From Candidatus Omnitrophota bacterium (GTDB lineage Bacteria > Omnitrophota > Gorgyraeia > Duberdicusellales > 4484-171): a DNA stretch of 64,000 nt. Location of the stretch: NCBI GenBank assembly GCA_018826075.1, contig JAHKAJ010000024.1, positions 4,343 through 68,342 on the forward strand, read 5' to 3'. A program made the position numbers and the translations under genes. Numbering within the stretch: the first letter of the stretch is position 1; each line of letters opens with the position of its first letter. Below, in pieces: positions 1-17,170 of this stretch. The notes under the pieces were generated by a model. The model saw only the letters and a list, made by a program, of their open reading frames with translations. It had not been told where the DNA came from and made no database searches.

Positions 1-2160
1 ACCATTTCCAACATGAAGTCCTTGCTTTCTGAATCCGGACAGGTCCTGTTTGGCGATGAGCCAAATACGATCATGGTCATCGACCATCCGGAAAACATTA
101 ACAAAATCGCGGAATACATTGATATGGTTGATGTTGAACCCCAGCAAGTGCATATTGAAGCCCGGATCGTCGAAGTAAAACTTCAAGGAGAGAATGCGTT
201 AGGGATAGATTGGACTGCTTTCGCACAAAGCGGCGGCTTGAATTTTGGTAATTTCGATATGTATTCCGGTACTGCCAGCAGCGGTATTACAACTAATGGT
301 GTAATTAATTATAAAAGCACAGTTTATCCGCCGATATCCGGGACTACAACCGAGTCCCCTTTTAATCTTACCTTAGCCCAGAACAATATCAATGTGGTCA
401 TGAAGGCTTTAGCTAATACTTATGATAGCGATATTCTTTCAGCTCCTAGCGTGACTACGATCAACAATCATGAGGCTACGATCCAGATGAAGGATGTTTA
501 TCCCTGGGCTGAACCGGAAGTTTCTACCACTGATGCAGTCAGTCAGGTCAGCTGGTCAGTTAATTTTGAGGAAACCGGTATCATGCTTAAAGTTACCCCG
601 ACTATCAGCGAAAATGGAAAAATTGTCCTTGATCTTCAGCCGGAAGTCAGCGAAAAAACTGACGATTATGAAATTACTTTGCAGCCTACCGGAACTGACC
701 CTATTGTTTATACGATACCGATAGTAGCCACCCGTCAGGCAAAGACAAAAGTGGTGGTCGGCAGCGGCGAAACCTTGATCATTGGCGGATTGATTAAAAA
801 TAAGGAAATAGAAGGCGAGACTAAAATACCTTTTTTGGGTGATATTCCCTATATTGGGTACCTTTTTAAAAGCCAGAAAAAAACCCGAGATAAGACTGAA
901 CTGGTTATTTTTGTCTCACCAACGATAATCAACACTCCGGAACTGGCATATAGCGCTAAAATGGAAAAAAAGATCCGTGAAGATGTTGAAGGGAAAGTAT
1001 CTAAAATCGATATGGGTCCGATTAAAGAAGCGGCCCTGAAAGCAGCCGAAAAAGAAAAAGTCCAAGCCGAAAAGGAAGAGTTAGAAGCTGAGAAAGAAAC
1101 TGTCCAAGCTGAGACCGAAGAAGAGCTTTTAGATAAAAAAATAAATGCCTTATACTCTAAAGGAGTGAGGCTATATTTTAACCAGCAGTTTAGAAAATCC
1201 GAAGCAATGTTTAAGGAAATTTTACGTTATGATCCCGATCATAAAGGAGCTCTTAACTATTTAGAGAATAAGCTTCCTGGCAAGTTTCAGGAAGAAAGAG
1301 CTGAGAAGCCTGTTCAGCAAGAGGCAAAAAAACCTGAGCCGCAAGTTTATCAAAAGCCATGGGGCTTGCCTGAAAAAGCCGAACCAGTAAAAATCCAATC
1401 AGAAAGAATAGATATTCAGCAGGCAAAGGAAGCTCAGCAACAAGTCCTGAAAGAACAAGTTAAAAACCTCCAGATCCAGGAGGCAGCCGCTAAAAAAGCC
1501 GCGCAAGTTAAGGCTAAACAGCTTTACAGTTCAGCAGTGTCACTTTACCGCGATAAGCGCTACCAGGAAGCTTACGCTAAATTTCAGGAATTAGATTCTT
1601 TTAGCCCGGACTATGCCCGCAGCAGCTACTATCTGGTTAAAATACCGGAGCTGATTTCGGCTGCTGAAAATAAAAGAAAATCCGAACAAGAGTTAACAGT
1701 TAAAAGGGAAACCGAACTTAAAGCTAAACAGCTTTACAGTTCAGCAGTATCGCTTTATAAAGAAAAGCAGTATGAACGGGCTTACGCTGAATTTCAGAAG
1801 CTGGATAATTTGATGCCTGGATATCAGCGCACAGGAAGTTATTTGACCAGGATACCGGAGTTAATCCAACAACAGCAAAGTATTAAACGGGCGAAAGAAG
1901 CTCGGGAGAAGGAAGCGGCAATTAAAGGCCAGGTTAAGGATGCCTATCAAACCGCAATTTCGCTTTATAAGGCTAAAAGTTACCCGGCAGCCTACGATAA
2001 GTTTTCGCAAGTCCAAAGTCTTATTCCCGGTTATCGAGAAACTGCCTACTATCTAAATAAGATCCCTAAGCTATTGGAAAAAAAACGTAAAGATGATGAG
2101 GCTCGTTTTGAAAAAGACCGTGGTCAGGCAATAAAAGACATGCTGAATGCTTGTGAGTGA
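1..2160 (+). CDS. pilQ: Secretin (PilQ/GspD family), 5'-partial (reading frame open to window edge); secretin C-domain followed by ~450-aa extension with coiled-coil and four ~65-aa repeats
   Basis: Translation contains the canonical secretin C-domain (…VVVGSGETLIIGGLIKN…IPFLGDIPYIGYLFKSQKKTRDKTELVIFVSPTII). Upstream there is an N3-like segment (QVHIEARIVEV…LGIDW). Frame 1 has no stop back to position 1, so the 5' end is outside the window. Confidence 0.8.
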   Translation, partial: TISNMKSLLSESGQVLFGDEPNTIMVIDHPENINKIAEYIDMVDVEPQQVHIEARIVEVKLQGENALGIDWTAFAQSGGLNFGNFDMYSGTASSGITTNGVINYKSTVYPPISGTTTESPFNLTLAQNNINVVMKALANTYDSDILSAPSVTTINNHEATIQMKDVYPWAEPEVSTTDAVSQVSWSVNFEETGIMLKVTPTISENGKIVLDLQPEVSEKTDDYEITLQPTGTDPIVYTIPIVATRQAKTKVVVGSGETLIIGGLIKNKEIEGETKIPFLGDIPYIGYLFKSQKKTRDKTELVIFVSPTIINTPELAYSAKMEKKIREDVEGKVSKIDMGPIKEAALKAAEKEKVQAEKEELEAEKETVQAETEEELLDKKINALYSKGVRLYFNQQFRKSEAMFKEILRYDPDHKGALNYLENKLPGKFQEERAEKPVQQEAKKPEPQVYQKPWGLPEKAEPVKIQSERIDIQQAKEAQQQVLKEQVKNLQIQEAAAKKAAQVKAKQLYSSAVSLYRDKRYQEAYAKFQELDSFSPDYARSSYYLVKIPELISAAENKRKSEQELTVKRETELKAKQLYSSAVSLYKEKQYERAYAEFQKLDNLMPGYQRTGSYLTRIPELIQQQQSIKRAKEAREKEAAIKGQVKDAYQTAISLYKAKSYPAAYDKFSQVQSLIPGYRETAYYLNKIPKLLEKKRKDDEARFEKDRGQAIKDMLNACE

Positions 2161-2172
2161 GGCTGAATAATT

Positions 2173-3888
2173 ATGCCAGAACCAACAATCGACCCCAAGC
2201 CCCAGGAAAAAGAAAATAAATCCCGCAAAAAGCTTGGCGAGATCCTTATTGAGCAGAAGGTGGTAACCGAGGATGTTTTGCGCCAGGCTTTATCCGATCA
2301 AAAAGTTACTCGCCAAAGACTAGGCGAAATTTTGATCGAACGCGGCTGGGTAAGAGCAGAGGATATCAATATCGCCTTGGCCCACCAGATGGAGATCGAG
2401 ACTGTAAGCCTGGCTGATTATGTGATTGATTCCCAGATCCTCTCGGTGATCATAGAGGAGGAAGCTCGTAAATATAAACTGATGCCTTTGTTCAAAGCTG
2501 GAAATGTTTTGTCAGTGGCCATGGCTAACCCTAACGATGTGGTGGCAATTGATCAATTAAGAAGGCAGACCAGTTTTCAAATAAAACCTTTGGCGGCAAC
2601 CGAGTCTGATATATTTTGGGCTATTGAGCAATACTACCAGTCTTCGGGAACAGTTGAAACTGTTTTAACCGGCATAGATATAGACAAACTTCAAAAAGGC
2701 GATTCTAAACAGGAAATGGCGATTTTAAAGCTGGTCAATATGCTGATAACTCATGCGGTTCACGAGAGGATCTCGGACATCCATATCGAACCGGAAAAAA
2801 ATACAGTAAATATCCGTTATCGTCTTGATGGTATGCTTCATAAACAATATGTTTTGCCGAAGGTTTTGCAAGGGGCAGTAACCTCGCGGATAAAGATTTT
2901 AGCTAATCTGGATATTTCCGAAAAACGTTTGCCGCAGGACGGAAGGATCAGGATGCGGGTCGAAGGCCGGGAGATAGATTTTCGAGTTTCAACTTGCCCG
3001 ACAGTTTCCGGCGAAAACACGGTTTTGCGGGTTTTGGATAAGACCGGTTTGACCTTGGGGCTGGAGGGATTAGGATTTCCTGGACGTGACCTGGAAAGAT
3101 TTAAGAAGATGTTTACTTCGCCATATGGGATAATCCTGGTAACCGGGCCGACTGGTTCAGGAAAAACCACCACTCTTTATTCGGTTTTACAACAGCTTAA
3201 TAAAGAAGATGTAAACGTTATGACTGTCGAGGATCCGGTTGAGTATCAGTTTCACGGTATGCGCCAGGTCAATGTCAATTCATCTATCGGCCTTACCTTT
3301 GCCGCGGCTTTGCGTAGTTTCCTGCGCCAGGATCCGGATATTGTCATGGTCGGTGAGATTCGTGATTTAGAAACTGCCGAAATCGCCGTTCAAGCGGCTT
3401 TGACCGGGCATTTAGTTTTGTCAACTCTTCATACCAACGATGCACCTTCGGCTTTCAGCCGGTTGGTTGAGATGGGGGTTGAGCCGTTTTTAGTCTCTAG
3501 TTCACTTCTGGGTGTATTAGCCCAAAGGTTAGTACGTAAAGTCTGCGATAAATGCCATGAAGAATATTCACCCGATGAAACAATGATCAAAGCTTTGCAT
3601 TTAGAGGGAAAAGTGGCTCCTGGTCAAAAGTTTTTTCGGGCCAAAATAAAGGGTTGTCCGGTTTGTAATGGCACTGGCTACAAGGGCCGGGTGGGAATTT
3701 ATGAACTTTTGGATAATACGCCGGGTATCCAGACCTTAGTCCTTAAACGTTCTCCGGCTAATGAGATCCGGGCAAAAGCCCTGACCGAAGGTTTGGTAAG
3801 TTTACGCGATGCAGCAATGGATAAATTTTTAGCCGGACTGATCACCGCTGAAGAAGTCTTCCGGGTAACCCAGGAAGTTGAAATTTAA
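2173..3888 (+). CDS. pilB: Type IV pilus assembly / type II secretion ATPase (PilB/GspE family)
   Basis: N-terminal GspII_E-like domain, Walker A GPTGSGKTTT, Asp box and His box. C-terminal tetracysteine motif CDKCH…CPVCNGTGY typical of PilB/GspE. Confidence 0.9.
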   Translation: MPEPTIDPKPQEKENKSRKKLGEILIEQKVVTEDVLRQALSDQKVTRQRLGEILIERGWVRAEDINIALAHQMEIETVSLADYVIDSQILSVIIEEEARKYKLMPLFKAGNVLSVAMANPNDVVAIDQLRRQTSFQIKPLAATESDIFWAIEQYYQSSGTVETVLTGIDIDKLQKGDSKQEMAILKLVNMLITHAVHERISDIHIEPEKNTVNIRYRLDGMLHKQYVLPKVLQGAVTSRIKILANLDISEKRLPQDGRIRMRVEGREIDFRVSTCPTVSGENTVLRVLDKTGLTLGLEGLGFPGRDLERFKKMFTSPYGIILVTGPTGSGKTTTLYSVLQQLNKEDVNVMTVEDPVEYQFHGMRQVNVNSSIGLTFAAALRSFLRQDPDIVMVGEIRDLETAEIAVQAALTGHLVLSTLHTNDAPSAFSRLVEMGVEPFLVSSSLLGVLAQRLVRKVCDKCHEEYSPDETMIKALHLEGKVAPGQKFFRAKIKGCPVCNGTGYKGRVGIYELLDNTPGIQTLVLKRSPANEIRAKALTEGLVSLRDAAMDKFLAGLITAEEVFRVTQEVEI

Positions 3889-3905
3889 AATAACGGTGTT
3901 ATAAT
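3878..3905 (+). promoter_or_regulatory. Sigma70-like promoter (TTGAAA-16nt-TATAAT) upstream of first pilin gene
   Basis: TTGAAA at 3878-3883 and TATAAT at 3900-3905 with a 16-nt spacer, followed by RBS AAAGGAGAG and ATG at 3924. Confidence 0.45.
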
Positions 3906-3923
3906 GAAATTCAAAGGAGAGAT

Positions 3924-4634
3924 ATGCTAAATTTTAGGTTAGGCCGGAAAAAAATCGCCTTTACTTTAATCGAACTCTCAGTGGTTATTGCTATAATCAC
4001 AGTTTTAGCCAGCATTTCTATTCCCAATGTCAATCGTTACCTGATGAAGTCTCGCGATGCCAAACGGATTTCCGATATCCAGGTTTTGAGCCTGGCAATC
4101 GAAAGCTTTTATGATGACCAGGGTCATTATCCGGGTTGGAACGATACGCTTACCCTTACCCCTAAACTTGGCGATAATGGCGAATGTGTAGGTGTAGTCG
4201 GCCGTACGGTAGGAACAGACCCTTGCGCTAGCAGTATTTCCGGAGGCACTAACCGGGTTGACGGCGCTTTAGATGTCTTACTTAAGCCTTATATCCAGGG
4301 TGCGATTCCCAGGGATCCTTCCTACGATAATCAGCCAAATAATTTTTATTACGGCTATGATCCGCATCACGAGTACGTTATCCCTACTGCCATTGCTTGG
4401 TCTGATACTTTTCCTACTGCGAATACTTCTTGCAGCGGCTTAATGTATCCGCATGCCGGTTGGCCGGGAGTGGCTAACAATACTACTGCTGTTTTGAGCA
4501 TCCGCCGTTTTGAGTCAGATACTATACATCGCCACCGGGATACTTGTCGCGGTGCTACCCTTTATATGGATACTTCTGATTATAACATTGCTTTTCCGAA
4601 TATTGGTTATGGGAGTGGATTGGGTAATCTATAA
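3924..4634 (+). CDS. Type IV pilin / pseudopilin (prepilin-type N-terminal cleavage/methylation domain), 236 aa, many N-x-S/T sequons
   Basis: N-terminus MLNFRLGRKKIA|FTLIELSVVIAIITVLASISIP is a class III prepilin signal with Glu+5 and a hydrophobic helix. Confidence 0.8.
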   Translation: MLNFRLGRKKIAFTLIELSVVIAIITVLASISIPNVNRYLMKSRDAKRISDIQVLSLAIESFYDDQGHYPGWNDTLTLTPKLGDNGECVGVVGRTVGTDPCASSISGGTNRVDGALDVLLKPYIQGAIPRDPSYDNQPNNFYYGYDPHHEYVIPTAIAWSDTFPTANTSCSGLMYPHAGWPGVANNTTAVLSIRRFESDTIHRHRDTCRGATLYMDTSDYNIAFPNIGYGSGLGNL

Positions 4635-4642
4635 AAAAAAAC

Positions 4643-4670
4643 TTGCATTTTTTTTAATTTTCGTTATACT
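4643..4670 (+). promoter_or_regulatory. Sigma70-like promoter (TTGCAT-16nt-TATACT) upstream of second pilin gene
   Basis: TTGCAT at 4643-4648 and TATACT at 4665-4670. A strong RBS AAAGGAGG lies 8 nt before the ATG at 4742. Confidence 0.45.
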
Positions 4671-4741
4671 TCTAATTAAGGAAGTTCTAAATAGATCGGG
4701 TGTTTTTTCGTTGTTTAAAATGTGAAAAGGAGGTGTGTGAG

Positions 4742-5299
4742 ATGAAAGGTTTTACACTTATTGAATTGATTGTAGTCATTGCAATCATTGCAATTTTAGC
4801 TGCAATCATTGCTCCCAATGCTTTTAAGGCCATTGAAAAGGCTAGCCGTTCAGCTGCCATCGGTGATTTCCGCACCATCAAGACAGCTTCTATGGCTTTT
4901 TATGCTGACACTGGAACTTGGCCGATCACGAATTGTGAAGAGGCGCTTTTAAAGAATCGGAATAATACTACAGTTTGTGCTGATGTTACTGGCGCTGGAG
5001 GTATTTCCGGTTGGGATGGCCCTTATGTTGAAATGTGGCCGTCAAAAACCCGTTGGGGCGGGGTTTACACTTATACCAACAACAACAATATAACTTGGAA
5101 TGCTAGTTATGCTGCTGGTGAGACGGCTGGAGCTTGCATTGGAAGGTATATTGCCATGAATGGTACCCCGTTTGATACCGAAAAGAAGCTGGATGAACAG
5201 ATCGACGGAACAGTTAACAATACAACTGGTCAATATCGTTGGAATGCTTCTAATATTTCATACATGTTGATTTCAGCTGATTGCACATTGCAGAATTAA
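4742..5299 (+). CDS. Type IV pilin (likely major pilin), 185 aa; start corrected from ORF-track 4700 to the Met preceding the prepilin signal
   Basis: MKG|FTLIELIVVIAIIAILAAIIAP is a canonical short-leader prepilin signal. The gene has a strong RBS, its own promoter and a strong terminator. The mature part is sequon-rich. Confidence 0.8.
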   Translation: MKGFTLIELIVVIAIIAILAAIIAPNAFKAIEKASRSAAIGDFRTIKTASMAFYADTGTWPITNCEEALLKNRNNTTVCADVTGAGGISGWDGPYVEMWPSKTRWGGVYTYTNNNNITWNASYAAGETAGACIGRYIAMNGTPFDTEKKLDEQIDGTVNNTTGQYRWNASNISYMLISADCTLQN

Positions 5300-5362: not shown

Positions 5363-5455
5363 AGAGCTTTGGGCTTTAAGAAAAACAAAAATACGATTGA
5401 CGCAGCAATAAACTTTAGTATAATAATCTATGTAGATTTATTCCAAAACCAAACC

Positions 5456-6169: not shown

Positions 6170-6927
6170 GAAAATTTTTAGCAATTTCTTTTCTTAATTT
6201 TAAAGAAGCAGTGCGCGATAAATTTTTCCTGGGAGTGGTTTTTTTCTTTATTTTTTATCTTTTGTTCTGTATTTTTCTGGGAAAGCTTTCAGTCGGCCAC
6301 GCTGACAAGGTGATGCGGGATGCCGGCCTGGCCGGAATCGAACTTACTGCTATAATCCTGGTCATTTTTAGTTTTACTTTCAGTTTTTTTCGCGAGAAAG
6401 AAAACCGGATCTTAGAAGTTTACTTGACTGATTTTTCACCCGGTATTTGCGTCAGCGGCAAAATTTTCGGTTATGTCCTGCTTTGCGGGTTATACCTACT
6501 TTTGTCAGCAATTGCCTTCGGAGGGCTGCTTTATTTAAACCAGGCCTTTAATCTGGCCTCACTGGTTGCTCTATACCCTTTATTCTTAAAGATCGTGATT
6601 ATCATTTTTTTGGCTTCTTTGTTTTCCACCTTATTTTCTTCGGCAACCACTGCCCTTCTTTCATTGCTTTTTGTTTATGTCGGGGCAGAGCTTATTCCTT
6701 CGGCTTTAGCTATCGTGAAAGCTTACGGGGCTCCGGTCCAAAAAGTTTTTATTAAATTTATCTATCTTTTTTTTCCTAATATGGACAAACTGGACATTAA
6801 ATCCCTGGCAGTATATGGGAAACTTCCCGATTACCGGTTTTTCCTGGGAATCACCATTTATGCCCTGGTCTACTGTTTGTTTTTATGGTTAATAAACTTG
6901 CTCATTTTTCAGAAAAAGGAATATTAA
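6166..6927 (+). CDS. ABC-2 family transporter permease (6 predicted TM helices)
   Basis: Highly hydrophobic 253-aa protein translationally coupled to the ABC ATPase. No specific motifs were seen. Confidence 0.6.
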   Translation: MRKFLAISFLNFKEAVRDKFFLGVVFFFIFYLLFCIFLGKLSVGHADKVMRDAGLAGIELTAIILVIFSFTFSFFREKENRILEVYLTDFSPGICVSGKIFGYVLLCGLYLLLSAIAFGGLLYLNQAFNLASLVALYPLFLKIVIIIFLASLFSTLFSSATTALLSLLFVYVGAELIPSALAIVKAYGAPVQKVFIKFIYLFFPNMDKLDIKSLAVYGKLPDYRFFLGITIYALVYCLFLWLINLLIFQKKEY

Positions 6928-7796
6928 AATTTCTAGTTTTCCTGGCCTGCCTTTTAATTATTCCTTTTTTGTCCCTTCGATTGCAGACGGACACTGCGCT
7001 GCTTGGTGAGCGTCTGCTTTTTGTCCCCCCGCAAGAGTATCTAAGTAACATCCGGGGAGGTTTTCGCAACCTCTTGGCCGATGTTTATTATATCAAAGGC
7101 GTGCTTGCTGTCACTGATGAGTTTAATAGCCGCCAGGAAAGGATTTCCTGGACCCAACAAGTTTTCAAAGCGGCAGTGCTTCTGGATAAAGATATGCTTC
7201 AGGCCTATTTTTTTGCCGGTTCGGCTATTGTCAACAGCAAAGAAGAACTTAAACAGGGAAACGAATTCTTGATCCTGGGTTTGACCAACAGCCCTTCCTA
7301 TTGGCAGATCCCTTACTGGATCGGATTTAATTATTACCTTATCGGCGACAGCCTTAAAGCCGCCGAGTTTTACCGGTTGGCTTCCCAGCGGCCGGGAGCG
7401 CCTAATTTTTTAAAAAGCAACCAGGCGATGCTGTTTTATAAGGCCGGTGAACCGCGAATGGGCTTGATGTACTTGGAAGGTTTGCTGGAGTCAGTAAGCG
7501 ATCCTGAGCAGCTCAAATGGGTAAAGCTTAAAATCGAATGGCTTAAGAACATGATTGTTTTGCAGGATGCAGTCGAGTCGTTTAAGGATCGTTACAACCG
7601 CCTGCCGCAGGATTTGGAAGAACTAATCAGCCGACGGCTGATCTCAAGCGTCCCCAAAGACCCTTTTGGCGGCGGCTATTACCTGGATGATCAATCGGGA
7701 AAAATCAAAAGTTCTTTTGGGATGCCGACTAAGGTCAAAACCACTCCGGAAAAGCCGGCTGAATCCGGAGAAGGCTGTTCTAAATGCAAAAAATAA
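6885..7796 (+). CDS. Hypothetical membrane-anchored protein with TPR-like helical region, part of the pilus/ABC cluster
   Basis: N-terminal TM (ILKFLVFLACLLIIPFLSL) followed by an alpha-helical region. Overlaps the permease 3' end and the next pilin gene start. Confidence 0.4.
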   Translation: MVNKLAHFSEKGILKFLVFLACLLIIPFLSLRLQTDTALLGERLLFVPPQEYLSNIRGGFRNLLADVYYIKGVLAVTDEFNSRQERISWTQQVFKAAVLLDKDMLQAYFFAGSAIVNSKEELKQGNEFLILGLTNSPSYWQIPYWIGFNYYLIGDSLKAAEFYRLASQRPGAPNFLKSNQAMLFYKAGEPRMGLMYLEGLLESVSDPEQLKWVKLKIEWLKNMIVLQDAVESFKDRYNRLPQDLEELISRRLISSVPKDPFGGGYYLDDQSGKIKSSFGMPTKVKTTPEKPAESGEGCSKCKK

Positions 7797-8305
7797 TCAC
7801 CAATCGGCAAAAATCGGGGTTTACTCTAGTTGAATTTATCATGGTCATTGCGATCATCTCCATGATCTCAGTGACTATCGGAGTTTCCCCTTCCACACTT
7901 ACGCCCCGCAAGCTTGAAAACGAAGTCCAGAAAATAGTCGGTGATTTAAACTGGGCCCGGGCTATGGCCATTTCCACTGGCTATCATTACCGGATAGATT
8001 TTGACATCAACAACGATACAGTGGTCAGTAGCACCGACAATAATACCTATATAATCTATAAAGTCGATCCCGCAGATTTAGTCAACGGAACACCGGTCAA
8101 ACGCGGGGTGTTGAGGGTAGATGGTATCAATCTGACTCATTCTTCGCCAGCCGTACCGATATATTTATTTGAATTTATCAGCCCGCAAGGCGGTCTTAAC
8201 AGTACGGTTCTTGACCCTTTGACTATTCATCTGGAGCTAAGCGGCGCGGCAAGTAACATAACTGTCCGCAACTTAACCGGTTATATAAGCTGGGATCGTT
8301 TATGA
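7784..8305 (+). CDS. Minor pilin / pseudopilin (GspH/FimT-like), 173 aa
   Basis: MQKIITNRQKSG|FTLVEFIMVIAIISMISV prepilin signal. The size and position are typical of a GspH-type pseudopilin. Confidence 0.7.
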   Translation: MQKIITNRQKSGFTLVEFIMVIAIISMISVTIGVSPSTLTPRKLENEVQKIVGDLNWARAMAISTGYHYRIDFDINNDTVVSSTDNNTYIIYKVDPADLVNGTPVKRGVLRVDGINLTHSSPAVPIYLFEFISPQGGLNSTVLDPLTIHLELSGAASNITVRNLTGYISWDRL

Positions 8306-9684
8306 AAAAAAAGCTGGCTAAAGCTTTCAGCCTTATTGAAGTTGCCGTGAGCATAACGGTTTTGGGCCTGGTCATTGTCGCAATTGTGCCGGCCATAAAC
8401 AGTGCTTTGCGCCGGGCCCGAATCTCAAACTACAAAGCCGTAGCTCACCGCCTAGCTCAGGAAAGGATTGAGCAGCTGACCGGGACTAATTTCAACAGTG
8501 ATTTTTATGACGGGTTATTCAATCTTACTACCGGCAATCCTTGGAACGATACCGTCTTTCATTTGTTAGGAAACAATACCTTTCCCGGAAACGAGGCTTA
8601 CGGAAACCTTTCGCTTAATACCAGCGACCCTGATGATCCTTTTAGTCATTACAGCCGGTTGACCGAAGGTTCCTGGGATCTTGACCAGGATAGGACTTTA
8701 GATAACGAGAAGTTGGCTGGACGGCCTTTAACGGGGATGTATGGTAATTTAAGCCTGGTCCGGGTAAGCGTATCTTGGGATTTTAATGAAGATGGAGTCG
8801 ATGATTATGAACCGGTGGTAGTAACAACTTTTAAGGCCGGCAGCCTTGAATCTACATGTTCAGCCATGAACCTGGTCAATACTCCTTTTTTAGATAATTC
8901 CACTGACCTTTGCTCTGAACCGGATAAAACTCTGCCAGCCAGTTTTGACGGTACTCTTAACAGCCGGATAACGCCTTACACTGCTGGTACTTTGACTATT
9001 AATGCCAATGTAGGCTGGGCTAATTGTCCTTCTTATTTTATCCTAGCTAATTCGGTAGTTTTAGATGGTTCACCCACGGTTTATGCTGAAGGTAAGACCA
9101 ACTCTACTCTTGATGGCGGTTCGGGTGGTTCTGGCGGCGGCGGTGGTGGTGGCTTTTGTGGGTTTGGTTTTCGTCTTGGAGGCAATGGCGGTAGTGGTGG
9201 TAACGGAATAGGTGCTTGCGGGGCAGGCGGAACTGGCTGTGGCAATAGTTATAATTCAGGTTTTACTTATGGTACGGGTGGTAGTGGTGGCAATGCCGTA
9301 CTGCCTGGCGGAGTCGGTGGCGCTGGCGGTAATGGTTTCGGTGGTGGTGGCGGCGGCGGGACTGTAGCTCCCGGGTTACCTTATGGCCAGGGTGGTGGTG
9401 GAGGTGGAGGCTTAATAGTGATCGTGACTTCTTCCCTTAGTGGCGGCGGCACTTTGAATGCCGCTGGTGGTAATGCTACAGGTTTGTCCTTTCCCGGAGG
9501 GGGCGGAGGAGGAGTGATTTGGATTGCTGCTGAGTCTTACGACGGTAGTATTAGTGCCGACGTTAACCGAGGCACCAACGACTTTCCAGTTCCTATTTTT
9601 AACGCCACATCCGGTATAGCCAGGATTTTTCAACTGAATACTGATGGTTCTCTTACCGCTAGGAATTTCACTGATACCTGGTAA
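8302..9684 (+). CDS. Large minor pilin-like protein with glycine-rich low-complexity central region
   Basis: MKKKLAKA|FSLIEVAVSITVLGLVIVAIVP prepilin-type N-terminus. About 140 aa (roughly 9115-9540) are dominated by GGSGG/GGNGG/GGGGGG tracts. It has ~11 N-x-S/T sequons. Confidence 0.6.
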   Translation: MKKKLAKAFSLIEVAVSITVLGLVIVAIVPAINSALRRARISNYKAVAHRLAQERIEQLTGTNFNSDFYDGLFNLTTGNPWNDTVFHLLGNNTFPGNEAYGNLSLNTSDPDDPFSHYSRLTEGSWDLDQDRTLDNEKLAGRPLTGMYGNLSLVRVSVSWDFNEDGVDDYEPVVVTTFKAGSLESTCSAMNLVNTPFLDNSTDLCSEPDKTLPASFDGTLNSRITPYTAGTLTINANVGWANCPSYFILANSVVLDGSPTVYAEGKTNSTLDGGSGGSGGGGGGGFCGFGFRLGGNGGSGGNGIGACGAGGTGCGNSYNSGFTYGTGGSGGNAVLPGGVGGAGGNGFGGGGGGGTVAPGLPYGQGGGGGGGLIVIVTSSLSGGGTLNAAGGNATGLSFPGGGGGGVIWIAAESYDGSISADVNRGTNDFPVPIFNATSGIARIFQLNTDGSLTARNFTDTW

Positions 9685-9703
9685 AATAAGTTTTGTTTAG
9701 AAT

Positions 9704-11248
9704 ATGAAGTTTAAAAAGTATAAGCTTTCAGTAACTTTGGTCGAGGCAGTGGTAGTTGTGGCTATCTTTGCGGTGATTGCCGCGGCTACTGGTTCGATCC
9801 TGTTTACAGCCAGCCGTTCTGGTTCGCGCCTGGCTGACAAGGCTAAGGTTTTTCAGGATGCTACCTGGGCTATGGATTATATGGTTAACGAAGCCCGCTG
9901 GGGAGCTGATTTTTACCTTGCTCCGGTTCCTTTTGAAAATTATGACCTGATTACCTTTCAAAGCGATACCAACCATAATAGGACTGATCCCAATGATCCT
10001 TGCGTTTGGTATTGGCGGGGTTTTACTACCACCGCTATTCCGGCGGTAAATTACGGCAATAGCAGCATCTTGTACCGTGGTTTGGATGCCGCTTGTAACA
10101 CTGATAATACTACTTCTTTACAGGCAGCTAATGCCAGCCGCCAGGAACTGGTTGGTTTTATAGTCGATAACCCGGTTAATGCTACGGGTAACCCGGTAAG
10201 GGTATTTGGTTGGAACAATACCACTAGTGAATTTAGCGTTGTCTTGACTACCCAGAATCCTTCAATCCATGATAACCAGACCTTGAAAGCTAAGGTAGTG
10301 GCTTTAAATAATGTAGAGAGAGCTATCTGTCAGTGTTCTGATGGCCAAGATAATGATGGAGATGGGGGGATTGATTATCTTACTGAAGCCAGTGAAACCT
10401 GCGGCCTTTTCTTTGAGTATGATGACGTCAGGTACGGCGGGACTGGTTTTCCCAATTTTAGATTTGACCAGACTCTTGATTCGATCTTGCCGGGAAACAA
10501 GTTTCAGGATTTTAATTTTCGCAATGAACGGTTTAAGCTTTGGGTAGATTTCAGGATGTTCTCAACTCTTGGCGCCAGCACCGGTTATGGCTATGGTTCC
10601 TCCGGCTATGCCGGCCCGAATTTCAGCAGCGATGCCGACAGTTTTATACATATGGATTTGCTTGTCCGGGCTCCTTATGATATTCAAGGTATCCCTGAGA
10701 GCACTTTTTATGCCAACACCATCAACTCTCAGACTATGCTGGGTATTGGCAGCTGGCTGGATTTATCCACTCAGCCTGCAGGCAACGTCTGGATTTTTAA
10801 GGATGAAAGAAGGGATAAATATCGTGTAAGCCAGGTTCATTCCAGCCGAGCGGAAAGGGCTGCAGCTGTGGTCAGTGCGCCGAATTTTAGCTATAGTGTA
10901 CCGCCCTGGTGTGAAACCAGCCCCGGCGGCCCCTGCGTAGCGAATTATTATTATAATACTTATGGTAATGGCGGTTATATTTATGTTGATAATAGCGGTG
11001 AGCTGCATATTGGTTACGTGATTAGCCGTACGAAGTACAATTATCTTTGTTCTGCCCACCCGACTTTTCTTGTCGGTATAACCAAAGACAGCTGTACTGA
11101 TCCGGCTTGCGCCGATGGAGTTGATAATGACGGTAATGGTTTTATTGATTATCCTGAGGATCCTGGCTGCGCCTCGGCTAAGGATATTTCAGAAGTTGCC
11201 CATGACCTGCAGTGTGTAGATGCCAATGACATGTACGAATATAAGTAG
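9704..11248 (+). CDS. Large minor pilin-like protein with two MopE-like putative metal-binding motifs
   Basis: N-terminus MKFKKYKLSVTLVEAVVVVAIFAVIAAA is a degenerate prepilin-like signal with Glu and a hydrophobic helix. It has CSDGQDNDGDGGIDY (about 10324-10378) and CADGVDNDGNGFIDYPEDPGC (about 11088-11170). Confidence 0.55.
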   Translation: MKFKKYKLSVTLVEAVVVVAIFAVIAAATGSILFTASRSGSRLADKAKVFQDATWAMDYMVNEARWGADFYLAPVPFENYDLITFQSDTNHNRTDPNDPCVWYWRGFTTTAIPAVNYGNSSILYRGLDAACNTDNTTSLQAANASRQELVGFIVDNPVNATGNPVRVFGWNNTTSEFSVVLTTQNPSIHDNQTLKAKVVALNNVERAICQCSDGQDNDGDGGIDYLTEASETCGLFFEYDDVRYGGTGFPNFRFDQTLDSILPGNKFQDFNFRNERFKLWVDFRMFSTLGASTGYGYGSSGYAGPNFSSDADSFIHMDLLVRAPYDIQGIPESTFYANTINSQTMLGIGSWLDLSTQPAGNVWIFKDERRDKYRVSQVHSSRAERAAAVVSAPNFSYSVPPWCETSPGGPCVANYYYNTYGNGGYIYVDNSGELHIGYVISRTKYNYLCSAHPTFLVGITKDSCTDPACADGVDNDGNGFIDYPEDPGCASAKDISEVAHDLQCVDANDMYEYK

Positions 11249-11251
11249 ACA

Positions 11252-13501
11252 ATGAGTCAAAATAAGCTTCAAAAAACTCAAACTTTGCTTTACGTCAGTT
11301 TTGCCCTGCTGGCAGTCAGTGTGGTGGCGGCTGTGGTTATGACCAGTGTCATCACTAACCTAAAAACCGCCTCTTATCAGCAGAAAGGAATGGATGCTTA
11401 TCAGCTGGCCATGGCCGGGGTTGAACGGGCTAAGGTCGAGCTGGCTAATAGTTGGGGTTGGCCAGGCATGGATGATGGCGGGGATGATGATCCTCATTTG
11501 GGAGAAGCCGGCTCGGATGAAACTGAAAGCCTGGGTGATGGCCAATACTGGGTGGCGATAGCAGATAATGTTGATGGTACGGTGACTGCGATTTCTCACG
11601 GTTGGGTGGGTGATGCTCATCAGGTGATCGAGGTGATAATAGAACAAGTAGCCGGCACAGTCCCTGTTCCTGAAGGGGTATTTGTGGCTGAACGGGATAG
11701 AAACCGGGTCAGTCAACTGGATGAGAACGGTGATCCTGTCTGGTCGCTGGAAGGAGCGCCTATGGGTGCCGGTCAAATTGCTTTTAACCCTAACACTAAT
11801 GAATCCTGGGTGTTTGCCGGGAGTCAGATCGTCAAATTAGGGGCTAATGGCATAGCCGAGTGGTCTTATCAGTTAGCTGTTGGTTCTGGACGCCTTGATG
11901 TTACGGTTAACCCTTATACTAGTGAAGTCTGGGTGGCTAATTTTGACGGCGACCAGGTAGTTAAATTAAATGCTGACGGAAGTTTGGGCTGGGTAGTTAA
12001 TTTTGGCAGTAACAGCCGGCCGACTTCAGTGGCTATAGTTCCTGAAACTACACCAAATACTACTCAATCCTGGGTGAGCTGCAGCAATAGCAACAGAAGG
12101 CTTTATAAGTTAAACGCTAATGGCAGTGTTGCTTGGTCTCTTTACAGGACTGATTTCCGGCTTTATTCGGTGGCAGTTGACCCTAATACTAAGGATTCTT
12201 GGGTAGCGCAGTATTATAACAACCGTATTGGTAGAGTAGATAATAATGGAGCAATGAAGTCTGGCTGGCCTAAAGGCGGCTTTAACCGTCCTTTTGCTGT
12301 TTCAATTAATCCTACTACGCGGGAATGCTGGGTAGGCGAAGTACGTGGTCACCGAATCATAAAATTAAATGATAACGGTACTTGGGCTTGGAATCTGAAT
12401 ACCGGTAGAGATATAGGCAAAATTTCGGTTGACCCTAATACTAATGAATGTTGGGCCGTTGGTGCTAACTGGGTTGCTAAAATAATAGACAATGGTACGT
12501 TTGGATCATTTGCTTTCCAAAATACCTCATTATCGATTCCTAGTTTGGATGTAGCCTCGATTGAAGTTGACCCGGCTACTGGAGAATGCTGGGTGAATGA
12601 ATCTGGCCGCAGCCGGGTTGTGCGTTTGGATACCAATGGCAATAAAGTTTGGCAAAGCCCGGCTTTCAATGCTTATGCGCTTGCCGGACTCGATTCCGGA
12701 GAAGTTTGGGTAGCTAATTACAACTCTTCAGCTGCATACACCGGTGTGGTTAAAGCCAATTCTGTTCCTTCAGTTGACTGGATGAGTGATGATATCTGGG
12801 CTGAGTCGCGTTCGATAGCAGTAAATTTTGCCGGTGAATCCTGGGTGGCTGATTATAACCGTGATAGAGTTAGGAAATTGAGGGCTGATGGTACAATTGA
12901 GTGGACCAAGAATCTTAACAACCCAATTTCAGTTGCAGTTAACCCTAACACCAATGAGTGTTGGGTGGCTTATAATGGTAACAGAGTTAGAAAATTAAAT
13001 GCCGATAGTACAAATGCCTGGACCAGGAGCGGCCTTAACGACCCAAGATCAGTTTCAGTTAACCCTAACACCAATGAGTGCTGGGTGGCTGAATATGGCG
13101 GTGGTAGAGTTAGAAAATTAAGGGCTGATGGTACAATTGAGTGGGGCAGGAATCTTAGCAACCCGATCTCGGTCTCAGTTAACCCCACTACTAGCGAATC
13201 CTGGGTGGCTGAATATGGTGCTAATCGGGTTAGAAAACTAAATGCCGACTCTACAGTTGCCTGGACCAGGGGCAGCCTTAGCGGACCGGTTTCAGTATCA
13301 GTCAATCCGGTTACCAGCCAATGCTGGGTGTCTACTGTTACGGGTACTGCTCGAGTAATCAAGTTGGATACCGACGGTACCGTAGTAGTTGACAAGTCCG
13401 GGTATAGTTATCCATCAGCAGTATCAGTCCCGCTGGTTGACACCAGTGCAACAGTTAACAATTCGATTAATGTTCAGTCCGGCAGCTGGCGGAAACCTTG
13501 A
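11252..13501 (+). CDS. PilX-N-terminal-domain minor pilin fused to ~14 tandem beta-propeller-type repeats (PilY1-like tip adhesin candidate)
   Basis: The N-terminus has a TM helix plus LAMAGVERAKVEL, which is PilX_N-like. About 40-aa repeats then run from 11690 to 13430, with consensus V-R/K-K-L-N-A-D-G-x-x-x-W … V-S-V-N-P-N-T-N-E-C-W-V-A. Confidence 0.55.
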   Translation: MSQNKLQKTQTLLYVSFALLAVSVVAAVVMTSVITNLKTASYQQKGMDAYQLAMAGVERAKVELANSWGWPGMDDGGDDDPHLGEAGSDETESLGDGQYWVAIADNVDGTVTAISHGWVGDAHQVIEVIIEQVAGTVPVPEGVFVAERDRNRVSQLDENGDPVWSLEGAPMGAGQIAFNPNTNESWVFAGSQIVKLGANGIAEWSYQLAVGSGRLDVTVNPYTSEVWVANFDGDQVVKLNADGSLGWVVNFGSNSRPTSVAIVPETTPNTTQSWVSCSNSNRRLYKLNANGSVAWSLYRTDFRLYSVAVDPNTKDSWVAQYYNNRIGRVDNNGAMKSGWPKGGFNRPFAVSINPTTRECWVGEVRGHRIIKLNDNGTWAWNLNTGRDIGKISVDPNTNECWAVGANWVAKIIDNGTFGSFAFQNTSLSIPSLDVASIEVDPATGECWVNESGRSRVVRLDTNGNKVWQSPAFNAYALAGLDSGEVWVANYNSSAAYTGVVKANSVPSVDWMSDDIWAESRSIAVNFAGESWVADYNRDRVRKLRADGTIEWTKNLNNPISVAVNPNTNECWVAYNGNRVRKLNADSTNAWTRSGLNDPRSVSVNPNTNECWVAEYGGGRVRKLRADGTIEWGRNLSNPISVSVNPTTSESWVAEYGANRVRKLNADSTVAWTRGSLSGPVSVSVNPVTSQCWVSTVTGTARVIKLDTDGTVVVDKSGYSYPSAVSVPLVDTSATVNNSINVQSGSWRKP

Positions 13502-13585: not shown

Positions 13586-14785
13586 ATGCCAGCTTATAAA
13601 TACACAGTAAGGGACAGGTTCGGAAGAAAAGTCAAAGGCTTTTCTATTGCTGCTGACCGCAGAGTTTTAGCTGAAGAGCTGGCTAAAATGGGCTATATTT
13701 TTATCTCCGCTGATGAAGTCGGCCGGCTAAAGCAGGGAAAAACCATAAAGATCAAGAAAGGCGAGGTTCTTAATCTTACCCGTAACCTATCAGCGCTTTT
13801 AAACGGCGGTATTCCTTTACTTGAGTCTTTGACTGCTTTGATCGGTGATACGTCCGAGTTAAATTTATTAAGTATCCTTATAAGTATTAAGAGTTATGTT
13901 GAGGCCGGCGGTTCATTCCGGGATGCTTTAGTTCTTCATCCCAAAGTATTTTCGGAATTATACCGGGCAGTAGTGGCTGGCGGAGAGGCAACTGGAAGGT
14001 TAGGGGCAGCGCTTGAGCAGATGTCTGATTATCTTGAGTGGGAGCAGGACCTTCAATCAAGGGTGCAAGGATTGGCAATATACCCGATCATTCTTTCAGT
14101 GATCATGCTTTTGGCTTTAGGTGTTATTGTTATCGTAGTTTTGCCGAAGTTTGAAGCTTTGTTTTCTGATTTTGGAGCTGAATTACCACTGATCACCCAG
14201 TTGGCCATGTCCATGAGTAAAATAGTCGCCAAGACCTGGGTTTATATTCTTGGGGCTATCATTTCTGCGGTAATTGTGTTAAAATTGATAATAAAGCGGA
14301 ATTACCGCTTGGCTCTTTTTTTCGATAAGTATAAACTTAAGCTTCCGATTTTCGGCGATGTAATCTATAAGTTATGCGTTTCACATTTCGCCAGGTCAAC
14401 GTACCTTTGTTTGTTTAACGGGATACCGATCGTCACCACCTTGGATATGGTACGCCAGACTGTGGGGAACAAATATTTAGAGGCGGCTTTGGACATGGTT
14501 AAGAAAAGTGTTTTTACCGGAGGCGAACTTTCAATGGCTCTTTCCGGGACCAATGCTTTCCCCAGCTTTATGGTCCGGATGGTCCACGTCGGAGAGAGCG
14601 CCGGTAATTTAGCCGACGGTTTTAGTAAAACCTGTAAGTTTTACGATAAGGAGATCCCCCGATTGATCGGCGCGGTATTCTCTATTTTAGAGCCGCTAAT
14701 AATTGTTTTTTTAGGCGTAGCAGTCATGGGTTTGGCCTTTGTGGTCTTTTTGCCTTTGACCCAGCTGTTACAGAAAGTAGGTTAA
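13586..14785 (+). CDS. pilC: Type IV pilus / T2SS inner-membrane platform protein (PilC/GspF family)
   Basis: 399 aa with two T2SSF-like repeats and 3 TM segments. The N-terminal cytoplasmic domain resembles PilC. Confidence 0.8.
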   Translation: MPAYKYTVRDRFGRKVKGFSIAADRRVLAEELAKMGYIFISADEVGRLKQGKTIKIKKGEVLNLTRNLSALLNGGIPLLESLTALIGDTSELNLLSILISIKSYVEAGGSFRDALVLHPKVFSELYRAVVAGGEATGRLGAALEQMSDYLEWEQDLQSRVQGLAIYPIILSVIMLLALGVIVIVVLPKFEALFSDFGAELPLITQLAMSMSKIVAKTWVYILGAIISAVIVLKLIIKRNYRLALFFDKYKLKLPIFGDVIYKLCVSHFARSTYLCLFNGIPIVTTLDMVRQTVGNKYLEAALDMVKKSVFTGGELSMALSGTNAFPSFMVRMVHVGESAGNLADGFSKTCKFYDKEIPRLIGAVFSILEPLIIVFLGVAVMGLAFVVFLPLTQLLQKVG

Positions 14786-14786
14786 T

Positions 14787-16448
14787 ATGAAAAATATTGT
14801 TGCTATTGATATCGGCGCCTGCCTTACCAAAATAATTGTTGCTGAAGACAAGCGCAAACTGCTGGAGATAGCCTCGTTTAAATATTTCCCGACCCCTTAC
14901 CGTAAAGACGACGTTTTTGATGAAGAGGTTTTTTTCGAACGCTTATTTGCGGTTATCAGCCAGGAAGTGCTAAAGTCATCACAGGTGGCTATCGGGCTTC
15001 CTTCGCCGACGACTAACTTTTCTTTTTTTGAATTACCGTCGATGGGGGCTGCTGATTTAAAAAAAGCCATTATCAGTGAAGCTCAGCGGACGATCCGTCC
15101 CACACCGGCAGATAGTGATATCCTGCGCTATGCTGTTTTGAAGAGTCCCCAGGCTAAGGAAGTCAAACATGCCAATATTTTAGTTGGTTCGGGGGTATCG
15201 GCTGAGATTACCCGCTATTACACTTTATTCGAGCGCCAGGGGATCACCCCCAGTTTTATCGGTTCTTCGGCCTCAAGCCCGATGGTTTATCCTTTAGGCT
15301 ATTACCCGGATTTACCGTCCGGTTGGTGTTTTGTCGACATTGGTTATACTAACACTACGATTGTTATTTTTTTCAACAACATCCCGACTTTAGTCCGGAC
15401 CATACTTTTTGCCACTCGCGATTTTATCCGGGCCATCTCCACCGATAAAAAAATCGGGCTTAAAGAAGCTCAGGATGTTTTTTTAAAACGCGAAGCCCAG
15501 GAATTAGCCGATACTAACTGGGAATACCTGATTTCGGAGATCCGGCGTTCTTTTGCTTACTACAAGGAAGTTTCCGGCGGTAAAGCCATTGAAGGGGTGC
15601 ACTTTACCGGAGGCATCTTTGCCGTAGGGCCCTATATCGATATTTTAAAGAAAAACATTGGCGGAAAAGTCGAGCTATTCGATGCCCGTATAGTTAAAAA
15701 AATATCCTTGGATAAAGTCGCGGCTGAAGAAATTACCAGCGCCGGTTACTTTTTCGCTAATTCTTTAGGTTTAGCCTTATCTTTATGCGAAAAGAAGCAA
15801 ACCTTGAATTTTTTACCGGAAACGGCTTTGAAAGAGAAACAAACCGAAATCGTTAAGTCTCTTTCTCGGCAAGTGCTCACGGTTTTGACTCTTGGCTTAG
15901 CAGTAATTTTCTGCCTGTCGTTGTTTTGGATTTCAGCAGTCAGGGGAAAATTAAAAAATGAGCTTTTGACTTTTTCCGAACAGGAATACCAAGATGCGGT
16001 TGCTACTGAAAATGAGATCACTCAAATAGAAAATCAAGTTACCGCCGAAGCTGATTTTATTGCCGAACAAGTCAGGCTCGGCGAGCAGCGCCGTAAGGTT
16101 TTTTCGGTTATCGCCAAATGCCTGCCTAGCAATGCTTATGTGGTTACTTTTGAATTCGGTTCGGGTTCTCCAGCGGCTGCCCCAAGTTCTTCTGGCGGCC
16201 GGCGCGGCCAGCCAGCCAGTCCAGCCAGCGAAGGAGAAACTGTTAAATGTGAGGGCCGGATTCAAGGAACCTACGAAGATACCGTTGAACAGCTTAAAGT
16301 CCTTGCCCGCAAGCTGCGTAAATCCGATATGTTTTCGGAAGTCACAGTTTCCCGTCAGACCCTTGGCAGTGAGCCGTTTTTGCCTTATCTTTCTGATTTT
16401 ACCGAAAATGTAAGAAGACAATTTACTTTGGAGTTAAAATTAAAATGA
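14787..16448 (+). CDS. pilM: Fused PilM (actin-like ATPase fold) - PilN-like (TM + periplasmic) protein
   Basis: N-terminus MKNIVAIDIGACLTKIIV is a PilM/FtsA-like fold running for ~340 aa. A single TM helix (VLTVLTLGLAVIFCLSLFWISAV) follows, then a ~180-aa periplasmic region. Confidence 0.6.
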   Translation: MKNIVAIDIGACLTKIIVAEDKRKLLEIASFKYFPTPYRKDDVFDEEVFFERLFAVISQEVLKSSQVAIGLPSPTTNFSFFELPSMGAADLKKAIISEAQRTIRPTPADSDILRYAVLKSPQAKEVKHANILVGSGVSAEITRYYTLFERQGITPSFIGSSASSPMVYPLGYYPDLPSGWCFVDIGYTNTTIVIFFNNIPTLVRTILFATRDFIRAISTDKKIGLKEAQDVFLKREAQELADTNWEYLISEIRRSFAYYKEVSGGKAIEGVHFTGGIFAVGPYIDILKKNIGGKVELFDARIVKKISLDKVAAEEITSAGYFFANSLGLALSLCEKKQTLNFLPETALKEKQTEIVKSLSRQVLTVLTLGLAVIFCLSLFWISAVRGKLKNELLTFSEQEYQDAVATENEITQIENQVTAEADFIAEQVRLGEQRRKVFSVIAKCLPSNAYVVTFEFGSGSPAAAPSSSGGRRGQPASPASEGETVKCEGRIQGTYEDTVEQLKVLARKLRKSDMFSEVTVSRQTLGSEPFLPYLSDFTENVRRQFTLELKLK

Positions 16449-17170
16449 GCGAAAAAATCAAAGTGAAAATCCCCAAAATAAGCCCCGAACTGTTAAAAAA
16501 TAATCTGTTGATCGTGGTTTTCGCCGCCGCCGTATTATTTTTAGTTTTGAATGTTTTAGTTTGGCTTTCAGGGCAGGCGGTGGTGAAGCAGACCGTTGAG
16601 ATCAAGCAAAAGAAGGAAAAGATAGTACAGGTCGCTAAAAAATTAAAAAAGACCATTGAAAATAAGCCTCACCTTAAGGCTGAGGAGTTTGCCCGAAAAA
16701 TTCCTTTTCAGGCAATACCGCCGATAGCGGCTATTCAACAGGCTGGCTTGATCATCAGCTCAATCGGAGCCCAAGGTGAGATTGTTGCCAGCGAAGGTTC
16801 AGCCGGGGCTGCATCAGGGGGGTCTGGTTCGGGAAGCCAGGGCACTTCCAGCCAGGACATCGGAGAACTTATTCTAGTTGGTTCCAAAAGCCTCAGCCAA
16901 CAGCAATTTTCTTTTCAATTTGACTCTGACTATGAAGATCTTATGAAAATTTTGGAAAAAATCCCTTCTGCTGATCCTTTGATGTTGGTTAGTGGTTTTG
17001 TCATCGAGCGGATAGATAAAGATGATGTAGGAGAACCGATACCCGGCACCCCATTCGTTACCATACCTCTGGTATCCGGCGACGTGCGTAAGCTGGACAT
17101 TGAACTTAAACTGATTACTTTTACTGAAGTCTCGCCCGATGAACCTATCTGGTCATCAGGAAAAAAATAA
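16445..17170 (+). CDS. PilO/PilP-like bitopic membrane protein (hypothetical)
   Basis: N-terminal TM followed by a coiled segment, a Gly/Ser linker and a beta-rich C-terminal domain. It sits directly after PilM-N. No diagnostic motif was seen. Confidence 0.35.
   Translation: MSEKIKVKIPKISPELLKNNLLIVVFAAAVLFLVLNVLVWLSGQAVVKQTVEIKQKKEKIVQVAKKLKKTIENKPHLKAEEFARKIPFQAIPPIAAIQQAGLIISSIGAQGEIVASEGSAGAASGGSGSGSQGTSSQDIGELILVGSKSLSQQQFSFQFDSDYEDLMKILEKIPSADPLMLVSGFVIERIDKDDVGEPIPGTPFVTIPLVSGDVRKLDIELKLITFTEVSPDEPIWSSGKK

Follow-up and report, generated by a model that had tools for sequence, protein, structure and literature searches.

Modular type IV pilins present adhesive modules at the filament tip: PilB and PilC of Streptococcus sanguinis carry a vWA module and a ConA-like lectin module, respectively, and a survey of this class counts 264 architectures, among them one pilin that has three NHL repeats (PMC8179133). 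In the tip pilins GspK, CpaL of Caulobacter and ComZ of Thermus a large domain lies between the pilin sheet and the extreme C-terminal segment, and the extreme C-terminal strand completes the pilin sheet, licensing assembly of the tip complex (PMC13533445). The PilK/PilX/GspK homologs invariably lack the glutamate at position +5, which is the mark of an apical subunit (PMC13533445). Here we describe a gene (11252..13501, + strand) on a 64,000-nucleotide stretch of Candidatus Omnitrophota contig JAHKAJ010000024.1 (assembly GCA_018826075.1), hereafter the window. Its product is a further architecture in the known class of modular pilins, inserted adhesin domains in K-position pilins having already been described (PMC13533445). 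We consider it probable that the protein is an apical (PilX/PilK/GspK-position) minor pilin of a filament resembling either a type IVa pilus (T4aP) or the pseudopilus of a type II secretion system (T2SS), in which a double-propeller module of ~590 amino acids (aa) has been inserted into a pilin of ~150 aa.

The gene is a single open reading frame (ORF) of 749 codons plus stop that spans all of the features discussed below, and its product is identical to NCBI MBU2044395.1, annotated as [quoted passage not shown], from an Omnitrophota metagenome-assembled genome (MAG). The initial annotation of this DNA had proposed a pilin-like N-terminus followed by 14 repeats, and this description was borne out: hand segmentation gave 14 adjoining units of ~40 aa (39-54 aa each) over aa 142-749 (nt 11675-13498). 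A hidden Markov model (HMM) of the blade, trained on 172 blades from relatives alone with the target left out, found 14 in-register matches at aa 149-733, with independent E-values (i-E) from 3e-4 for blade 9, the weakest, to 1.5e-21. As a control, 200 shuffles of the repeat region yielded seven matches at i-E<0.01 (~0.035 per sequence), the best at 9e-4. The blade count of fourteen is sound. The consensus originally given for the repeats, VRKLNADGT..W...VSVNPNTNECWVA, represents units 10-13; units of greater age are degenerate forms of it, with 19-47% aa identity.

The repeats are NHL/YVTN-type beta-propeller blades. A repeat profile retrieved 282 proteins of NHL/YVTN/YncE type at E<=1e-6, and the nearest propeller relatives are often cell-surface proteins with SLH anchors. 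Sequence matches in the PDB were to PknD-derived "Pizza" propellers, the PknD sensor domain and streptogramin B lyase (E 1e-9 to 1e-20), and the Pfam families matched above their gathering cut-offs (in brackets) were Vgb_lyase at 54.3 bits (50), NHL at 25.7 (20) and DUF5122 at 30.9 (27). The Vgb_lyase score, just over its cut-off, and a weak match to SGL are what could be expected if the filament displayed an enzyme, for instance a Vgb/SGL-type lyase or lactonase. We regard this as very unlikely, based on the NCBIfam Vgb(B) score of 39 bits against a cut-off of 600 and the SGL score of 18 bits against 26.3, by which both assignments were rejected at the family level, and on the identity of the top sequence matches, which are PknD-type sensor blades without enzymatic function and surface proteins with SLH anchors.

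To what number of blades does each propeller close? The initial annotation had suggested that fourteen blades make two 7-bladed propellers, and our results support this. Runs of exactly seven blades were found by the blade HMM in 14 of the close relatives and a run of 21 in another (P0008), compared with 14 in the target. Propeller 1 comprises blades 1-7 (aa 142-450; 11675..12601, + strand) and propeller 2 blades 8-14 (aa 451-727; 12602..13432, + strand), the border between the two being approximate and blades 8 and 9 being degenerate. An AlphaFold2 (AF2) model of aa 137-455, made from an evenly covered alignment of 7-blade segments, is a closed propeller of 29 strands with a predicted local distance difference test (pLDDT) of 84.5 and a predicted template modelling score (pTM) of 0.84. 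Its best structural matches are 7-bladed, namely the YVTN S-layer domain 1l0q, YncE and the designed WRAP-T (TM score, TMq, 0.74-0.76), with streptogramin B lyase 2qc5, also 7-bladed, at 0.69. An 8-bladed design (Cake8) scored 0.71, 9- and 10-bladed designs 0.60-0.62 and 6-bladed NHL domains 0.53-0.55. The model thus provides good support for a 7-bladed first half. That the second half is likewise a closed 7-blade unit is supported by blade counts, length and homology: propeller 2 would be 277 aa long, compared with ~265-320 aa in stand-alone 7-blade relatives, and the array ends at "...PSAVSVP" (aa ~727), which is the same end point as in those relatives.

In blade sequence type and fold the target therefore resembles YncE, the Methanosarcina S-layer YVTN domain (1l0q), Vgb and the PknD sensor, with TMq values of 0.69-0.76 over ~300 residues; however, these are free, S-layer or kinase-linked domains, none of which lies inside a pilin, and PknD and classical NHL domains have six blades. 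The fold had also been called PilY1-like. This was not upheld, as PF05567 gave no match at E<=1 and the top 50 Foldseek matches included no PilY1 structure, and a propeller of the PilY1 family (PF05567/IPR008707) was rejected on these grounds. What the target does have in common with the PilC/PilY1 tip adhesins would be a beta-propeller at the pilus tip together with minor pilins, but PilY1 is not a pilin and its propeller is of another family. The target would unite the roles of PilX and PilY1 in one chain.

The N-terminal module (aa 1-136; 11252..11659, + strand) is of the PilX/PilK/GspK minor-pilin type, based on profile searches, hhalign, AF2 secondary structure and the N-termini of the other pilins in the operon. 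In the AF2 model a long helix (aa 5-65) is followed by three beta-strands (aa 98-131), and this predicted arrangement is the pilin pattern. The N-terminus is class-III-like, MSQNKLQKT/QTLLY (the slash separating positions -1 and +1), with Thr at -1 and Tyr at +5 when registered on the FTLIE motifs of the operon's other pilins. The earlier assignment as PilX-type did not stand as a direct match: no Pfam family, PilX_N (PF14341) included, matched aa 1-135 even at E<=10, a PDB profile search with the four closest N-terminal sequences found nothing, and a word-indexed search with the N-terminus returned a single fragment. It did stand by transitive homology. An exhaustive search with a profile of the module and its three closest relatives against 1.84 billion representatives found 59 representatives, every one matched at the N-terminus of the protein and most of them stand-alone proteins of 130-170 aa. 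PilX_N was matched by 15 of the 33 short family members at E<=0.01 (best E 1.8e-14), and its cut-off was exceeded by five of the long ones. The target module aligned with the stand-alone minor-pilin family in hhalign at 99.9% probability (E 4.9e-35), and the family profile matched the Thermus tip pilin ComZ (6qvi) in the PDB at E 2.4e-4. With a pilin module at aa 1-136 and NHL/YVTN propellers at aa 142-727, the protein has the make-up of a modular pilin.

The propellers had been described as fused to the pilin, that is, appended to it. Instead, they are flanked on one side by the pilin sheet and on the other by a conserved C-terminal segment, SINVQSGSWRKP (aa 738-749; 13463..13498, + strand), which is joined to propeller 2 by a linker of ten residues (aa 728-737) and is identified by the C-termini of the family, motif counts and an alignment of the protein with its middle removed. 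Almost all members of the pilin family end in the motif [VI]-x-[PS]-G-[ST]-W-x-[EK]-x, irrespective of the payload that lies between. Thus, the stand-alone members P0132 and P0133, which have no payload, end in VAGSWEEI and VPGTWSEI; the lectin-bearing P0002, P0003 and P0127 end in ILPETWNER, ILSGTWSER and VIPGTWRER, and P0128 and P0129 in PVSGTWGER; and the target, with its double propeller, ends in NVQSGSWRKP. The core of the motif was present within the last 10 residues of 30 of the 59 family members, compared with none of 122 unrelated propeller proteins used as controls. Furthermore, a construct from which the middle was deleted (aa 1-137 joined to aa 727-749) aligned end to end with the stand-alone family (template positions 4-137), its tail falling on the W-x-E of the family's C-terminus. 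We predict from these alignments that the C-terminal segment returns to the pilin module as its last beta-strand, an in-cis "C-beta".

Comparison of relatives indicates that the payload at this insertion point is exchanged. In the long members of the pilin family the payload is mostly one to seven Laminin_G_3 (ConA-like lectin) domains. The locus of one such member, P0003 (locus L004), is syntenic with the window: the tip pilin is followed in both, in this order, by GspF, PilM, a small protein, a tRNA synthetase, QRPTase, UvrB and pantothenate kinase, and the common flanking proteins are 50-79% identical. The two pilin modules are 55% identical over ~148 aa but the proteins are unrelated beyond, the payload in L004 being a Laminin_G_3 lectin. 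The J-position pilin upstream also diverges in its C-terminal part between the two loci, and the L004 copy (L004 3-914) ends in what looks by eye like Laminin_G_3 sequence; a second tip subunit therefore appears to swap modules too. On two short metagenome contigs (L006 and L007), the same blades come immediately after pilin modules 65-66% identical to that of the target, which places the propeller version in other lineages as well. In one further relative, P0130 (1344 aa), the pilin module leads straight into about four NHL-type blades and these into four Laminin_G_3 domains; two further weak blade matches lie at aa 527-600, and the payload may be mixed or interrupted. Our tentative suggestion, to which we give less credence than to the assignment of the target itself, is that the PilX-position tip pilin of Omnitrophota is a cassette holder. 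Differing binding heads, a double propeller here and one to seven ConA-type lectin domains or mixtures in relatives, would be swapped at an orthologous locus into one fixed insertion point, flanked by the pilin sheet and the terminal strand, and the head would replace PilY1 and set the host or prey surface to which the filament attaches.

Within a type IV filament operon, the target gene comes after minor pilin genes of the H, I and J types, which is the place of an apical pilin. The three minor pilins (173, 460 and 514 aa; 7784..11248, + strand) were recognized by N_methyl, GspH, ComGD/ComGE and GspI matches, mostly below the family cut-offs: 7784-8305 is GspH/ComGD-like, while 8302-9684 and 9704-11248 carry N_methyl and weak GspI/ComGE matches, and their assignment as I and J rests on gene order along with those weak matches. 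We presume that these three are the partners of the target in the tip complex. Further machine genes lie both upstream (13..5299, + strand; a secretin truncated by the window edge, a PilB/GspE ATPase and two major-pilin-like genes) and downstream (13586..17170, + strand; a GspF/PilC platform, a PilM-like protein of 553 aa and one of 241 aa that matched no family). All belong to one run of same-strand genes, which gives way to housekeeping genes at 17.2 kb, and the cluster has no PilY1 gene.

Based on these findings, we propose the following role. The N-terminal helix would anchor the protein in the inner membrane, and the C-terminal segment, following on from payloads inserted after the last strand of the pilin's small sheet, would fold back to complete that sheet in cis, as in GspK, CpaL and ComZ. 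The completed module would then be recognized by the I/J-like minor pilins encoded just upstream, and together they would prime filament assembly. Since the target has Tyr in place of Glu at +5, as expected of a PilK/PilX/GspK protein, it would take up the very tip, where the two propellers would be displayed as a ligand-binding (adhesive) head. The initial annotation had likewise named a pilus-tip adhesin, and a tip binding role is still what is best inferred from the residue at +5, the position after H-I-J-like genes and the type IV filament operon. A binding head at the filament tip is most likely by analogy with modular pilins, with the lectins at the same insertion point, with the surface-anchored relatives of the propellers and with the pili of Omnitrophota.

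The target resembles the modular pilins in that a small pilin module bears a bulky binding module, not specific to pili, for display on a filament. It differs from them in that its carrier is of the PilX_N type, with no match to the IPR012902/N_methyl signature, and in that its payload is a tandem of two propellers inserted before the C-terminal segment rather than appended. It resembles GspK, CpaL and ComZ in lacking the glutamate at +5, in being encoded last in an H-I-J-K-like set, in having a large domain between the pilin sheet and the extreme C-terminal segment, and in the lack of a separate PilY1 gene in the cluster. However, the insert is a double NHL/YVTN propeller, as opposed to the alpha-domain of GspK, the beta-solenoid of ComZ or CpaL's own adhesin domain, and the strand addition is deduced from sequence alone.

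Several observations weigh against the role proposed above. The first of these concern the models. AF2 performed poorly on the full-length protein (mean pLDDT 66, pTM 0.55), was confident within propeller 2 at aa 550-715 only, so that this half is modelled in part, and left the C-terminal segment unplaced (pLDDT <50 for aa 719-749). The full-length run used a mixed MAFFT alignment, and its confidence tracked the uneven coverage of that alignment, in which single-propeller homologs align to some of the blades only. Local tests showed that an alignment of the whole repeat region could not be evened out, hence the restriction of the second model to blades 1-7. The best PDB match of the full-length model was still the 7-bladed YncE, which is also among the top matches for blades 1-7. 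Because E. coli YncE binds DNA, a DNA receptor of a competence pilus, in the role that ComZ has in Thermus, might be envisaged; the match of the pilin-family profile to ComZ and the weak resemblance of the minor pilins to ComGD and ComGE would agree with it. We think this highly improbable: the likeness to YncE is at the level of fold (11-13% identity), the ComG matches are below cut-off and mainly to N-terminal helices, and the lectin payloads of the orthologs point to glycans, not DNA.

The second concerns the leader. At -1 the target has Thr, and Gly is absent from its residues 1-15; the Gly -1 of a type IV pilin is therefore lacking, which makes processing by prepilin peptidase uncertain. 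Classical prepilin peptidases need Gly at -1, and Ala is poorly tolerated. The leader would suit a membrane-anchored periplasmic protein that remains uncleaved and never enters a filament, and that serves, for example, as an assembly factor or sensor. We hold this to be quite unlikely, since the FTLIE-type motifs of three other pilins in the operon, canonical in other respects, have Ala, Ala or Ser at -1, and the local peptidase may therefore accept small residues. Moreover, the residue at -1 is Ala or Ser in close relatives of the target and Gly in remote ones, and the conserved C-terminal motif and the missing Glu at +5 are hallmarks of a tip subunit. In all, four of the six pilin-like genes of the operon have a residue other than Gly at -1 (3924-4634, 8302-9684, 9704-11248 and 11252-13501), with the motifs KKIA/FTLIE, AKA/FSLIE and KLS/VTLVE in addition to QKT/QTLLY of the target; only 4700-5299 and 7784-8305 have Gly. 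The motifs suggest either a prepilin peptidase of relaxed specificity or unprocessed subunits.

The third concerns the type of machine, which is ambiguous: scores for PilB and GspE, and for PilQ and GspD, are nearly equal and all below cut-off. In addition, a scan of the window's ORFs, which passed over ~25 of those with >=120 aa, mostly at 33-37 kb and >50 kb, turned up no PilT. That result would fit a protein that caps the short pseudopilus of a T2SS; its propellers would then work within the secretin or at its mouth, perhaps as a docking platform for secreted substrates or as a piston head. The gene order H-I-J-K and the absence of PilY1 from the cluster are in keeping with such a cap, as would be an in-cis C-terminal segment, a typical trait of T2SS GspK. 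The secretin and platform obtain slightly higher scores as GspD and GspF, and the PilM-like protein (14787-16448) has a long C-terminal extension past the PilM domain that is reminiscent of GspL. Against this, the ATPase scores best as PilB (612.8 bits versus 582.3 for GspE), the operon has two major-pilin-like genes, and the lectin payloads of relatives suggest external ligands. Omnitrophota clusters of this kind have been assigned to the T4aP class and connected with attachment to a host (PMC10066038), and in-cis strands are known in type IV pili as well (ComZ, CpaL and Vibrio cholerae; PMC13533445). On balance we judge a T2SS cap unlikely, though less so than the other alternatives considered here, and favor an apical pilin with an adhesive head.

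The initial annotation had further reported a recent tandem duplication of ~243 bp at ~80% identity in the repeats and had taken it as a sign of ongoing expansion. What stood of this is a younger subfamily of four blades, u10-u13, each of ~120 nt (12854..13336, + strand), as defined by nucleotide identity, Tandem Repeats Finder and synonymous divergence (dS). These blades have 54-72% aa and 61-78% nt identity among themselves, compared with 19-47% and 46-60% for the remaining blades. The two segments originally named, 12841-13083 and 13081-13330, are 75.6% identical with seven gap positions; the best ungapped piece (12835-12979 versus 13075-13219) is 79% identical and the second piece 73%. Tandem Repeats Finder put the period at 120 nt instead of 240 and counted 3.1 copies at 74%. 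An alternating two-unit pattern is visible in the protein, and nt identities are 78% for u10/u12, 76% for u10/u11, 71% for u11/u12, 70% for u11/u13, 66% for u12/u13 and 61% for u10/u13. The dS values are 0.42 for u10/u11, 0.68 for u10/u12, 0.81 for u11/u12, 0.89 for both u11/u13 and u12/u13, and 1.70 for u10/u13. Because the lowest value of any pair is that of u10/u11, a single 243-bp event is not favored as the sole model. Nor does the duplication appear recent, as the two-unit blocks u10-u11 and u12-u13 differ at dS 0.77 and a nonsynonymous divergence (dN) of 0.21; among the older blades the median dS is 1.68, with 14 of 45 pairs saturated. Blades u10-u13 thus read as a younger or once-homogenized subfamily that records no recent event.

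Mis-assembly of the repeats was excluded, since the gene is base-for-base the same in three further independent assemblies, namely two Logan assemblies from separate runs and GCA_018827925.1. Two protein variants from other MAGs (P0183 and P0184) are 99.3% identical to the target and also 749 aa long, with five substitutions each, none of which is in propeller 2. Neither ongoing expansion nor length variation was evident: among the full-length copies found, a small strain sample of four DNA-identical assemblies and the two variants, every copy had 749 aa and unchanged blades 10-13. A genome-contig scan found no relatives, and a metagenome scan returned only short contigs that end before the repeats do. 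The two variants share E265G, T266I and Q272E in a single long loop of blade 3 (aa 265-272; window 12044-12067), outside which their propellers are unchanged, and this extended loop may be a variable surface.

Other genes of the operon have features of their own. An ABC-transporter ATPase (5369-6169) and two genes without family matches (6166-6927 and 6885-7796) stand as a trio between the major-pilin-like and minor pilin genes, and recur in other assemblies of the locus. The assembly ATPase (2173-3888) has an MshEN domain with an MshE-type cyclic di-GMP motif (NF053729, 61 bits; cut-off 38), by which the filament may be regulated by cyclic di-GMP. In the secretin (13-2160), a weak, sub-threshold TPR-like match follows the secretin domain (aa ~379-597). 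In the 460-aa I-position pilin (8302-9684), the C-terminal part is long and rich in glycine, including runs like GGSGGSGGGGGGG and GGGGGGGL, and nothing beyond the N-terminal motif matches a family. The 514-aa J-position pilin (9704-11248) contains acidic double-disulfide repeats (NF033662; best at aa 466-492), a repeat type that is also present in the tip proteins P0002 and P0003.

Within the modular pilins, the features of moderate interest here are the double-propeller payload and the clear cassette-like replacement of the payload at an orthologous locus in an uncultured phylum. The target would be a natural example of the recently proposed rule that an apical minor pilin needs a terminal beta-strand, which is provided in cis where PilY1 is lacking (PMC13533445). 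Omnitrophota are uncultured, mostly ultra-small bacteria for which a life on other cells is suspected, and few devices other than type IV pili have been proposed for their attachment (PMC10066038). With propellers at one syntenic locus and lectin domains at the other, the variable binding head of this tip subunit offers concrete candidates for the determinants of specificity. If the cassette reading is true, the swapped heads would decide which host or prey surface is bound by these ultra-small and probably host-dependent bacteria.

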